Positions 11,107 through 38,991 of a DNA stretch of 64,000 nt are shown one piece after another. The notes beneath the pieces were generated by a model. The model had not been told where the DNA came from. It saw nothing but the letters and a program-made list of their open reading frames with translations, and did not search any database. Position numbers and translations under genes: made by a program. Origin of the DNA: Leucoraja erinacea (Eukaryota); the NCBI RefSeq assembly GCF_028641065.1, contig NC_073394.1, forward strand, positions 41,478,001 through 41,542,000, read 5' to 3'. The stretch's first letter is position 1. Each line of letters opens with the position of its first letter.

Positions 11107-11182
11107 ATGCCGTGCAGTGGCGACTTGTGGCCGGCCCTGTTCCCGGGACTCATCGCTATGCTCGCCCTGCTCGGGGCAGCAG
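11107..11182 (+). CDS. Exon 1: signal peptide [25 protein letters not shown]
   Basis: gccATG start context in a GC/CpG-rich region, hydrophobic leader, phase-1 donor G|gtaagg. Confidence 0.85.
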
Positions 11183-14100
11183 GTAAGGCGGAGCTGGGAC
11201 GCTACCTCTCTCACAACCAGAGGCAAGGGCGACACTGCCGCCGCATCCCGACTCCCCCTCACCAAGGAATGCACACTCACACCAGTGTACACTCACACTC
11301 ACTCCAGTGTACACTCACACTCACTCCAGTGTACACTCGCACTCACTCCAGTGTACACTCACTTCCACACCAGTGTACACTCACACTCACTCCAGTGTAC
11401 ACTCACTTCCACACCAGTGTACACTCACTTCCACACCAGTGTACACTCACTTCCACACCAGTGTACACTCACACTCACTCCAGTGTACACTCACACTCAC
11501 TCCAGTGTACACTCACTTCCACACCAGTGTACACTCACTTCCACACCAGTGTACACTCACACTCACTCCAGTGTACACTCACTTCCACACCAGTGTACAC
11601 TCACTTCCACACCAGTGTACACTCACTTCCACACAGTGTACCACACCAGTGTACACTCACACTCACTCCAGTGTACACTCACTTCCACACCAGTGTACAC
11701 TCACTTCCACACCAGTGTACACTCACACTCACTCCAGTGTACACTCACACTCACTCCAGTGTACACTCACACTCACTCCAGTGTACACTCACCTCCACAC
11801 CAGTGTACACTCACACCAGTGTACACTCACACCAGTGTACACTCACACTCACTCCAGTGTACACTCACTTCCACAACAGTGTACACTCACACTCACTCCA
11901 GTGTACACTCACACTCACAACAGTGTACACTCACACTCACTCCAGTGTACACTCACTTCCACAACAGTGTACACTCACACTCACACCAGTGTACACTCGC
12001 ACTCACTCCAGTGTATACTCACTCCAGTGCACACTCACACTCACTCCAATGTACACTCACACTCACTCCAGTGTACACTCACTTCCACACCAGTGTACGC
12101 TCACACTCACTCCAGTGTACACCCACACCAGTGTACGCTCACTCTCACACTTATGTACACTCAATCTCACACCAACATACACGCTTTCACCAATGCCCAT
12201 TTACTCTCACCGATGTACACACACTCACACATATGTACACACAATCAAACACCAATGCACACTCAATCTCACACCACTACACAGTTTCCCACCAATGTAC
12301 ACTCAATCTCACACCTACCAGTGACAAGTTGCATTGATACTAAATGTTCTCTGCACTCTTTACAGTTTATTGCCATAAATCTGAAAAAGGTGCAGAGAGG
12401 ATTCAGCAGGATTTTGGCAGGGCCTGAGCTCTGGGGAGAGGTTGGGCAGGCTGGGACTATTCCTTGGAGGGCAGGAGGCTGAGGGGTGATCTTATAGAGG
12501 TGTATACTATCACGAGGGGAATAGATAAATATACACTCTTGCTCGGGGTAGGGGAATCAAGAACCATATAGGTTTAAGGTGAGGGGAGAAAGATTTAATA
12601 GGAACCTGAAGGACAATGTTTATCAACAAAAATCTGGGGTAGATAAGAATGCTGGAGAAACTCAACATCTATGGAGCGAAGGAATAGGTGACATTTTGGG
12701 TCGAGACCCTTCTTCAGATTATTGGGATTATTTTGCTAAAGTGAATACGAATTCATGATACATTTTCAAGTGCTGTGTACGTAGTTTGCACGTTTTCCCC
12801 GTAACTGCGTGGGTTTTTCCCCGGGTGCTCCAGTTTATGTAAACTTATAAATTGTCCCTAGTGTGTAGGGTCATAAGAACATAAGTGATGGGAGTAGAAT
12901 TAGGCCATTTGGCCCATCAAGTCTACTCCAACATTCAGTCATGGCTGATCTATCTCCCTCCTAACCCGATTCTCCTGCCTTCTCCCCATAACCTCTGACA
13001 CCCGTCCTAATCAAAAATCTATCTATCGCAGCCTTAACTATATCCACTGACTGCCTCCACAGCCCTCTGTGGCAAAGAATCCCACAGATTCACCAGGATA
13101 GTGCTCGTGTATCGCTGGTTGGCATGGACTCGATGGGCCAAAGGGGCTGTTTCCACTCTATCTCTAAACTAAATTTTCACACTGCACCACCGGGGCAAAA
13201 TTCTCTAAACATTTGTTTCCTACTTTTTGTTTGGCGATTTGTTTGTAGACGGGCAACTTGTTTCTCTATGATTGCAGAAGGAGGAGATCTGGTTGTGTCA
13301 ATGAATTCAAAAACGGTGGAAGTCTTTGTGAATAAAGATGCCCTTCTTGAATGCCGAGTGTCTGGTTACAAAACCAGTGAGATCGACCTTCAAAATGTGG
13401 GTGTCATCTGGTACCTTACAAGGTTGGGGGCCCCCAAGGAGGAAGTGTATAAATTCAGCGCAGGAACGCATACACCTTACAGAAAAGATGCTGCGATTTT
13501 TGATGATGAGTTAAAGAAGGGAATTGCCTCTCTCTTCCTGCCACTTGTTCAATTTGATGAAGAAGGAGATTATACCTGCGTAGTCTTCATCAGCCCGGAC
13601 CAGGGAAGCGGCAAATCTACAATGATTGTTTCAGGTAAAAACAATTAATAAATATTTCAGGCATGCACAGTAGATCTGCTATCTCACATTCCAGAGACAC
13701 CGGTTCGATCCTGACCTCGTCAGTGTGGAGTTTGTACGTTTTCCCTGTAATTGGTTTGCTCCAGGTTCCTCCCACCCTCTAAACATGTGCAGGTTTGTAG
13801 GTTAATTGGCGTTGGTAAAATTATTAAATTGTCCCTACTGTGTAGGATAGTGCTAGTGTACGGGGTGATTGCTGGTTGGCATGGACTCGGTGGTCTAAAG
13901 TGCCTGTTTGCACTCCGTATCTCTAAAGCCTGAAGTCTAATGAATTTGTCCTCTGTTTATATGTCTTTGACATTTTCACCCAGGGATTAAACATTCTGAC
14001 AATCTACTCTTTGAAACGGATCACAAAAGATTATTCACTCAATCGTTATATATATGTAATTGCAAGCTGTGTAGCTATACACCTGTAAACTAAAAATAAA

Positions 14101-38100: not shown

Positions 38101-38991
38101 GAAGCCTTAACTTAAAAAAATTGTTAACAAGGATGGAATTGATCAGTCGGGTACTAAGGTTTTAAAAGAAAACTTTGGGTGGCGCAGAGGTGGAGTTGTG
38201 GACTTGCAACACCAGAGACTCGGATTCGATCCTGACCTCAGGTGCTATCTATGCTGAGTTTGCATGTTCTCCCCTTGACCGAGTGGGCTTCCTCCGGGTG
38301 CTCTGGTTTCCTCCCACAACCCAAAGACCTGCAGGTTTGGAGGTTAATTGGCTTTGGTAAAATTGTAAAGTGCCCCTTGTGTGTAGGTTAGGGCTAGTGA
38401 ATGGGCTGATCGCTAGTCGGCTTACTCAGTGGGCCGAAGGCCCTGTTTCCACTATGTATCTCCAAAGTCTAAAGTAAAAGTTAATTGGCCTCTGTAAATT
38501 GTCCCCTACTGTACAGGGAGTGGATGAGAAAATGGGATAACATAGAACTAGTGTGAACATGTTAGCGATGGCCAGCGTGGATTAGCTAGGCCTAAGAGCC
38601 CAGCTTGCTGTATTTCTGAACTAAACTATCCACTGTCGAAAGTGAGACCATCTCAATATGTGCATATTCTACTCTATTTTAAGGTAATTCCCCCAATGTG
38701 TCTGAAATCAACCGCAAAGCTCAAGAGGAAAGCACAGTGGCATCTTTCACGGTTTCGTTGACTGATTATGTACCTCAGAAAATTGAGGTGAAGTGGTTCA
38801 AAGGAGAACAACGCTATGTAGGGCCTGTCCATAATAGTCAACCTCAGGTTGCCACCACTGGCCTCTTCTCTTCAACAACAGAAATACAATTTATTCCAGA
38901 ACCATGTGATCATGACTTGGAAATCAGATGTGAGATATTTCATCTGGAAACAAAGAAAAGGATTTACCGAAAGTGTCGCTTAACATTTTGA
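11107..38991 (+). CDS. NCR3LG1-like: B7-H6/NCR3LG1-like type I membrane IgSF protein, 10 coding exons, ~975 aa: SP-IgV-IgC1-TM-(IgC1)x6
   Basis: Exons 11107-11182, 13278-13634, 18842-19162, 23916-24032, 25602-26015, 27350-27736, 29099-29410, 33015-33338, 37772-38083 and 38684-38991 all have AG/GT boundaries in phase 1. They join into one open frame of 2928 nt including TGA. The V and C1 sequences resemble human B7-H6 as I recall it. Confidence 0.8.
11271..12310. repeat. Minisatellite of (cacactcactc/cacttccacac)-cagtgtacact units in intron 1
   Basis: ~22-bp units with a palindromic GTGTACAC core. Confidence 0.95.
13278..13634 (+). CDS. Exon 2: IgV domain, B7-H6-like
   Basis: EGGDLVVSM...LLEC...VGVIWY...[23 protein letters not shown] with canonical C-W-C. 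Acceptor ttgcag (tandem cagaag NAGNAG), donor G|gtaaaa. Confidence 0.9.
14652..18712 (-). mobile_element. Near full-length degenerate CR1 LINE (SGNH-esterase ORF1, APE, RT), with a nested CR1 3' fragment at ~16336-16610
   Basis: ORF1 GNSIVRG...HVGTND (18166-18708), [37 protein letters not shown]1 tail tagaaaca. Lies in intron 2. Confidence 0.9.
18842..19162 (+). CDS. Exon 3: extracellular IgC1 domain, B7-H6-like
   Basis: [16 protein letters not shown]...[16 protein letters not shown]...[10 protein letters not shown]. Acceptor cttcacag, donor G|gtaagt. NGT and NVS sequons. Confidence 0.9.
19405..19915 (+). mobile_element. CR1 3' fragment
   Basis: Same subfamily as 8415-9019. Confidence 0.85.
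20315..21007 (+). mobile_element. Penelope-like element 3' part (GIY-YIG endonuclease)
   Basis: [10 protein letters not shown]...CxxxxCxxC...[16 protein letters not shown]...H. Confidence 0.85.
21011..21735 (+). mobile_element. Rex1/Babar-type LINE 3' fragment
   Basis: [10 protein letters not shown]...FYQSIIESI...HPANHLF...[14 protein letters not shown] plus (ctat)n tail. Confidence 0.8.
21823..21850 (+). ncRNA. Minimal hammerhead ribozyme core in a Penelope pseudo-LTR
   Basis: CTGAAGA, stem GGGTC-TC-GACCC, then GAAACGTC. Variants at ~7101, 9838 and 59196 (+) and ~12695, 20037 and 44225 (-). Confidence 0.6.
22725..23346 (+). mobile_element. Rex1/Babar-type LINE 3' fragment
   Basis: [12 protein letters not shown]...SFFPEAIR; (acttg)n tail. 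Confidence 0.8.
23916..24032 (+). CDS. Exon 4: transmembrane helix plus basic stop-transfer
   Basis: [39 protein letters not shown]. Poly-T tract/ttacag acceptor, G|gtaaag donor, 117 nt, phase 1-1. Confidence 0.85.
25602..26015 (+). CDS. Exon 5: post-TM C1-like Ig domain 1 (no F-strand Cys, long insert)
   Basis: VPPKVSEI...[10 protein letters not shown]...[11 protein letters not shown]. Acceptor tttttctag, donor A|gtaagt. Confidence 0.8.
27350..27736 (+). CDS. Exon 6: post-TM C1 Ig domain 2
   Basis: [17 protein letters not shown]...[12 protein letters not shown]...YVCEVEHPA. Acceptor aacag after a pyrimidine tract, donor G|gtacag. Confidence 0.85.
29099..29410 (+). CDS. Exon 7: post-TM C1 Ig domain 3
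   Basis: [16 protein letters not shown]...DGRYSF...LTCKFQHES. Strong polypyrimidine acceptor ctcttcag, donor A|gtaagg. Confidence 0.85.
29905..31745 (+). mobile_element. CR1 ORF2 fragment
   Basis: [26 protein letters not shown] and FADD motifs, broken by stops and frameshifts. Confidence 0.9.
31945..32365 (+). mobile_element. CR1 3' fragment
   Basis: [11 protein letters not shown]...WNSLP plus tail. Confidence 0.85.
33015..33338 (+). CDS. Exon 8: post-TM C1 Ig domain 4 (no F-strand Cys)
   Basis: [20 protein letters not shown]...FKVEALH. Acceptor tttttgcag, donor G|gtatgt. Confidence 0.85.
34856..35255. mobile_element. Tc1/mariner (Tigger-like) MITE
   Basis: TA-flanked imperfect TIRs caggtccaccattaatttcc / ggaaaatcagtggtgaacctg. 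Confidence 0.6.
35395..36475 (+). mobile_element. Nested CR1 3' fragments (two subfamilies)
   Basis: C-terminal ORF2 motifs and two different tails. Confidence 0.85.
36527..37469. mobile_element. Non-autonomous DNA transposon, P-element-like (CAAAG termini)
   Basis: ~37-bp TIRs (caaagatcctatagcggagcaagataggctactcctg and its near-perfect inverse) and an 8-bp TSD GTCCTGAC (36519-36526, 37470-37477). Confidence 0.8.
37772..38083 (+). CDS. Exon 9: post-TM C1 Ig domain 5 (no F-strand Cys)
   Basis: [17 protein letters not shown]...DGFYQL...LVFEVKN. Acceptor ccaaatag, donor G|gtaagt. Confidence 0.8.
38684..38991 (+). CDS. Exon 10: post-TM C1 Ig domain 6 (no B-strand Cys), ends in TGA
   Basis: [20 protein letters not shown]...GLFSSTTEI...IRCEIFH...LTF*. 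Acceptor ttttaag. TGA at 38989-38991 is followed by G|gtaaat. Confidence 0.8.

Follow-up and report, generated by a model that had tools for sequence, protein, structure and literature searches.

Immunoglobulin (Ig) domains of the C1 set are building blocks of antibodies, T-cell receptors and MHC molecules; they normally occur, and are assumed to function, in the extracellular space or the lumen of the endoplasmic reticulum (ER), stabilised by disulfide bonds. Tandem Ig domains in the cytosol are a feature of titin and obscurin, where they often lack the disulfide and belong to the I-set domains of soluble muscle proteins. Tapasin has an N-terminal tapasin domain, a C-terminal dilysine signal and a short tail. 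In shark UrIg2 and in Ig heavy chains, a V domain is followed by many C1 exons (VJ plus nine C1 exons in UrIg2) and the transmembrane (TM) segment comes last, so that all C1 domains are extracellular. Human B7-H6, encoded by NCR3LG1 (PDB 3pv6, 6yjp; PMC2715080, PMC3135353), is a type I membrane protein of 454 amino acids (aa) with an ectodomain of V plus C and a Gag-homologous tail of approximately 170 aa. Here we analysed a window of 64,000 nucleotides from the skate Leucoraja erinacea (assembly GCF_028641065.1, contig NC_073394.1, positions 41,478,001 to 41,542,000 of the forward strand) that contains a gene related to NCR3LG1, in which the TM exon directly follows the first C1 exon and is itself followed by a tail of 685 aa with six Ig domains. 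In contrast to titin and obscurin, the tail is of the C1 set and is attached to a membrane ligand. Probably, this spliced gene encodes a B7-H6-family protein with one TM helix, an outward V-C1 part that likely binds NKp30-family receptors and six likely cytosolic Ig domains that likely serve as a rod-like scaffold. NKp30 binding is known for human B7-H6 only.

The gene lies on the plus strand at positions 11107 to 38991 of the window and has ten exons with GT-AG borders throughout, nine phase-1 introns and 975 codons without an internal stop. The layout of its product is SP-V-C1-TM-(Ig)x6 (SP, signal peptide), and a Kyte-Doolittle scan detected the signal peptide and one TM segment (approximately aa 255–288) with no other hydrophobic segment. 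A first-pass annotation, made from the letters of this DNA, had described an SP-V-C1-TM gene that continues in phase into six C1-type Ig exons without a second TM segment, and the exon model, Pfam and hydropathy confirm this description, which is refined in one respect: one of the two canonical cysteines is missing from four of the six tail domains. Among the tail exons 5 to 10, which encode the domains named D3 to D8 here, exons 6 to 10 pass the curated Pfam cut-off for C1-set domains, whereas exon 5 (D3) has no Pfam match and is recognised as Ig by predicted fold and homology. Modelled on its own with AlphaFold (8-row alignment, pLDDT 78.8), exon 5 is predicted to form a beta-sandwich of Ig type with an extended, disordered loop. 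The top Foldseek matches of this prediction include chains of SIRP-alpha, MHC-II and beta-2-microglobulin, and also nanobodies, at TM-scores of 0.5–0.6. The model of the whole protein (pLDDT 65.9, pTM 0.31) contains one long helix with strand-rich domains on either side and an unreliable inter-domain geometry. With this model, Foldseek retrieved generic Ig strings alone at TM-scores of at most 0.20, and the match to titin, on top at 0.19, reflects such a generic string; a feature search of the ESM Atlas likewise yielded generic C1-set clusters.

The 975-aa model is identical at 975 of 975 positions to residues 131–1105 of RefSeq XP_055505932.1 (Leucoraja erinacea, 'uncharacterized'). The Amblyraja and Rhinoraja orthologs have no counterpart of the additional 130 residues at the N-terminus of this record; their start methionine corresponds to the one at position 11107. 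The protein cluster around the window gene comprises eight members, six of which come from Logan. Five of these six (944–958 aa, from contigs of 3.2–3.6 kb) run at approximately 99% identity without interruption across the exon 4–exon 5 junction (24032/25602), while the sixth begins at aa 534. A genome search with exon 6 gave six matches, the next best at 43%, and no near-identical second copy. Because the gene spans 28 kb and no such copy was found, the Logan contigs presumably derive from spliced RNA. The gene is real and spliced, and its splicing is established at the level of contigs.

When the ectodomain was compared with the PDB, human B7-H6 was the best of 10 sequences at E ≤1e-12 with 101.7 bits in one stretch; four-domain B7-H3 reached 98 bits summed over two stretches, two-domain B7-H3 53.5 bits and TAPBPR 52.9 bits. 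In a profile search of the PDB, B7-H6 scored 130 bits versus 100 and 59. With the V exon alone, four-domain B7-H3 ranks first by summed score. The nurse-shark protein QTT61907.1 (980 aa), which was deposited in GenBank as 'NK cell cytotoxicity receptor 3 ligand (B7H6)', has the same SP-V-C1-TM-six-domain layout with no difference and 45–69% identity per exon, and it forms one clade with the window gene, with support of 99/98, in a midpoint-rooted tree of V+C1 (30 rows, none of them human). These comparisons support the assignment of the predicted protein to the B7-H6 family, as the first-pass annotation had proposed. Its treatment of the locus as a single odd gene did not hold, since the family is old and expanded and the nurse-shark ortholog already carries the name B7H6. 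Among the human residues in contact with NKp30, PMC3135353 (with its Table II) gives Thr127 and Pro128 as the two main ones, together with Lys130 and also Phe82 and Gly83. In the window gene, Thr127, Pro128 and Lys130 align to Ser131, Pro132 and Gln134, so that the proline of the FG loop is kept and the threonine is replaced conservatively, and Phe82-Gly83 align to Ser-Ala. Among the V domains of 71 family members, T (52), P (61) and K (38) are the most frequent residues at the FG-loop contact positions.

A search with the tail as query found 22 proteins in rays, sharks, Callorhinchus, Protopterus, Bombina (where the protein is named NCR3LG1), Pleurodeles, Polypterus and eel. The eel protein (P0030) lacks the layout and, like P0055 and P0056, was not counted as a family member for this reason. 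A library clustered at 50% identity gave 1204 matches, and the layout was scored on the best 150 of these plus four proteins from a profile search. Of these 154 proteins, 103 had a TM segment that follows V or C1 and is itself followed by one or more Ig domains; the remainder had no TM segment (27), no Ig domain after it (17) or another arrangement (7). Ten of the 154 that were looked up by name include Latimeria, Callorhinchus, Lissotriton, Xenopus tropicalis, Dendropsophus and Erpetoichthys; no amniote was among these ten, a sample too small to date the loss of the tail. The profile search aimed at amniote members had five proteins among the matches listed, with sturgeon and gar as new members and one unrelated MDGA2-like protein. 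The predicted layout is common to sharks, rays, chimaera, coelacanth, lungfish, amphibians and basal ray-finned fish, and the orthologous tail has the same domain order at 43–65% identity across sharks, rays and chimaera. The Ig tail is likely the ancestral state of jawed vertebrates and was likely replaced in the human lineage by the Gag-homologous tail. Tails vary from one to about 11 domains: Dendropsophus has about 11 post-TM domains after V-C-C-TM, P0108 has a Tachylectin domain behind D3, D3 is repeated seven times in Heterodontus, and Chiloscyllium has a non-Ig tail. In the library, the set of tail variants comprises P0108, P0090, P0092 and P0165.

The skate genome contains further copies. 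Two tandem paralogs lie upstream of the window gene, namely paralog B (C18 41423004-41449216) with V-C1-TM-D3-D7 and a degenerate D8, and paralog A (C18 41365590-41378776) with V-C1-TM-D3-D4 and a tail that ends after D4 in the scan. Both are nearly identical to each other, and their D3 lacks the canonical cysteines. A more divergent paralog (C18 20184497-20203224) consists of V-C1-TM and six exons, each of which scores best against the profile of the same position from D3 to D8, indicating that the six-domain order predates the duplication. Both cysteines are kept in its D3 and D8, and its V domain scores 26 bits against human B7-H6, versus 39 bits for the window gene. At a distance of 14 kb from the end of this paralog, the opposite strand carries a Kir gene with KCNJ11 as its best PDB match. 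ABCC8 was not detected, as a Pfam ABC_membrane search gave no match on C18. The human NCR3LG1 gene maps to 11p15.1, beside KCNJ11, so that the divergent paralog is likely its positional counterpart in skate, and this counterpart also has a tail of D3 to D8. A stray D3-like exon is located at C18 41329588, and another V-C1 gene of the family, whose D3-like exon is weak, at C18 41238542-41256679 on the minus strand. Additional V-like matches were found on the small contigs C1692, C543 and C1278, and V and C1 exons on the minus strand of C1010 (17196-26324), which may be tapasin-like, judging from a resemblance in motifs.

The orientation of the tail was assessed in those 71 of 153 proteins with profile matches that have exactly V-C1, one TM segment and at least one Ig domain after it. 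Before the TM segment, 228 N-glycan sequons were observed versus 123.6 expected from shuffled sequences (ratio 1.84), and after it 177 versus 167.4 (ratio 1.06). The contrast lies within each protein; 62 of the 71 have a higher sequon density before the TM segment than after it, and 8 have a lower one. In 55, the net charge after the TM segment exceeds that before it. With each domain assigned by its best profile, the canonical pair of cysteines in strands B and F was found in 69/70 V and 71/71 C1 domains, and in the tail in 33/36 D4 and 52/56 D5 domains, compared with 2/66 for D3, 0/29 for D6, 5/26 for D7 and 3/22 for D8. The window protein conforms to this pattern: D4 and D5 keep the pair, and D3, D6, D7 and D8 lack one of the two cysteines. 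The single TM segment, the drop in sequons behind it and the loss of the pair in four of six domains support the earlier claim of a cytosolic tail and argue strongly for a topology in which V-C1 would face outward and the six-domain tail would reside in the cytosol.

In a protein of this topology, the V domain might engage NCR3-family receptors via its FG loop, and the tail, from the basic stop-transfer residues to the last residue, might form a folded scaffold that would cluster the ligand, anchor it to the cytoskeleton or sort it. C1 domains typically pair through one sheet, and by analogy self-association of the tail is plausible; a complex prediction for two copies of D3–D5 yielded no verdict (score 0.00, alignment not used).

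Several observations weigh against this reading. The 71 sequences are related and do not represent independent trials, so that the counts and the Wilcoxon p-value overstate independence. Within the tail, the sequon ratio reaches 1.45 in D4 and 1.52 in D7, one sequon in D3 is common to 16 of 24 closer orthologs and not to skates, and D4 and D5 retain both cysteines in 92–93% of cases. We identified no signalling motif or binding partner for the tail. Regarding the family assignment, the summed score of four-domain B7-H3 is close to that of B7-H6, a human sequence is absent from the tree, and of the human FG-loop contacts only the proline is identical in the skate copy. The window gene, at 41.49 Mb, is 21 Mb away from KCNJ11, so that the paralog and not this copy is adjacent to KCNJ11. 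Finally, isoforms that skip the TM exon are annotated in three other species.

The cysteine pairs of D4 and D5, the sequon ratios of D4 and D7 and the common sequon in D3 would fit an extracellular life for some of the molecules. In-frame skipping of the TM exon would yield a secreted form with all eight Ig domains outside, which is annotated in other species and was not seen in skate. Such a form might account for the retention of both cysteines in D4 and D5. Six pairs of RefSeq isoforms X1 and X2 were compared: in Carcharodon, Cetorhinus and Bombina, precisely the TM exon is missing from X2 (39, 39 and 34 aa), and the other three pairs differ elsewhere. In P0074 and P0100, two further representatives, C1 is joined directly to D3. 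It could be argued from these data that the tail matters mainly in a secreted V-(C1)x7 protein, acting as NKp30 decoy or antibody-like effector, and that the membrane form is secondary. We regard this as rather unlikely because all five Logan proteins from skate that cover the region include the TM exon, the cysteine pair is gone from four tail domains and sequons are not enriched over the tail as a whole. Moreover, with introns that are all in phase 1, any loss of the TM exon automatically preserves the reading frame, and the skipped isoforms may represent noise. More tentatively, B7-H6 of ancestral jawed vertebrates may have had a dual topology, with a skippable TM exon that sets a cytosolic scaffold of six C1 domains against a secreted, antibody-like V-(C1)x7 form; this would be an undescribed cytosolic use of C1 domains that was later swapped for the Gag-derived tail in the human lineage.

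TAPBPR among the PDB matches, with V and C1 next to the membrane as in the skate protein, raises the question whether the latter is a tapasin/TAPBPR-like adaptor of the ER or endosomes, in which a lumenal V-C1 would bind MHC-like cargo and the tail would connect to coat or degradation machinery without any function as surface ligand. In a study of the human Ig superfamily (PMC13262535), NCR3LG1 indeed groups with TAPBP and TAPBPL ahead of the other B7 ligands. However, the score of B7-H6 is about twice that of TAPBPR, V and C1 alone precede the TM segment without an N-terminal tapasin domain, the C-terminus lies in the final Ig strand and has no dilysine signal, and the positions that contact NKp30 are conserved across the family, which makes such an adaptor improbable. 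There is only a slight chance that the C1 domains in the cytosol act as bait or sensor for viral proteins directed at C1-set proteins of the host, which would link infection to surface display or release of the ligand. The expansion of the family and its variable tails, including the sevenfold D3 and the Tachylectin domain, are in line with such a role, whereas the order of the orthologous tail, kept from sharks to chimaera at the identities given above, looks structural. Given that C1-set domains are normally extracellular and that D4 and D5 keep their cysteines, an extracellular tail of the membrane form, by inverted topology or an unrecognised second crossing, was considered as well; it is very improbable in a protein with a signal peptide and a single hydrophobic segment, in which V and C1 show an extracellular signature that the tail does not, and positive charge follows the TM segment. 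That exons 5 to 10 are a separate gene or an annotation fusion would be compatible with junction support at contig rather than read level, yet this explanation is already largely refuted and has next to no probability, since the junction is spanned by five Logan proteins and by the nurse-shark protein in GenBank, the same join is present in the 103 related proteins, and none of the nine ATG-to-GT phase-1 candidates in intron 4 has a leader-like hydrophobic core.

The gene with its likely cytosolic Ig tail is a real, conserved and unusual variant of a known ligand family. Our full-text literature search found no description of Ig domains in the tail of B7-H6 within the texts it covered, with Flajnik 2012, Ohta and Flajnik 2015 and Kinlein 2021, the sources likeliest to mention the tail, outside the search; a corresponding search for cytoplasmic Ig or C1 domains returned unrelated papers only. 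Because the full-length nurse-shark protein was deposited as B7H6, the chances that the tail has already been remarked on in print are about even. A string of C1 domains behind a membrane helix since the split of chondrichthyans and osteichthyans would offer naturally occurring cases of likely cytosolic C1 folding, which bears on the origins of the C1 domain and on the design of intracellular antibodies. The Gag-like tail of human B7-H6, a target of cancer immunotherapy, is recast as the likely replacement of an older structured tail, which makes a tail-swap test possible.

Table 1. Features of the B7-H6-family gene, in positions of the window.
Feature	Position	Strand	Basis
Putative promoter and 5' UTR (likely)	10700..11106	+	GC/CpG-rich, ahead of start codon
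Exon 1, signal peptide, aa 1-25	11107..11182	+	ATG in GCGGCCATG context, hydrophobic core, phase-1 donor
Exon 2, V-set, FG-loop Ser131-Pro132	13278..13634	+	Pfam V-set 1.4e-9; alignment to 6yjp
Exon 3, C1-set before TM (predicted extracellular), sequons N160, N211	18842..19162	+	Pfam C1-set 1.1e-11
Exon 4, sole TM helix, then basic residues	23916..24032	+	117 nt, phase 1-1, in-frame skippable
Exon 5, tail D3, divergent Ig with long loop, F-strand Cys absent	25602..26015	+	Predicted Ig fold; no Pfam match
Exon 6, tail D4, C1-set, both cysteines present	27350..27736	+	Pfam 4.4e-9
Exon 7, tail D5, C1-set, both cysteines present	29099..29410	+	Pfam 1.5e-11
Exon 8, tail D6, C1-set, F-strand Cys absent	33015..33338	+	Pfam 2.8e-7
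Exon 9, tail D7, C1-set, F-strand Cys absent	37772..38083	+	Pfam 4.8e-12
Exon 10, tail D8, C1-set, B-strand Cys absent, stop codon	38684..38991	+	Pfam 1.8e-6

The region around the start codon (10700-11270) has a CpG observed/expected ratio of 0.81 and a GC content of 0.64, and the respective values for intron 4 are 0.27 and 0.41. At the other end of the gene, a splice-donor-like GGTAAA is found one base past the stop codon (window 38992-38994), suggesting a non-coding last exon, and the first AATAAA/ATTAAA downstream of the stop codon is at 39384. The start of intron 1 (11272-12174) is occupied by a tandem array of about 39 copies of a 22-bp unit (44/66-bp), which is the source of long spurious open reading frames (ORFs). 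The ORFs at 43–62 kb of the window had no Pfam match, and neither had GC-rich patches at 44375-47074 and 55219-56298 with a (GCT)n run. Judged by eye, a gypsy-like retroelement remnant is located near 55.2–56.3 kb, and the introns contain many LINE-like remnants.

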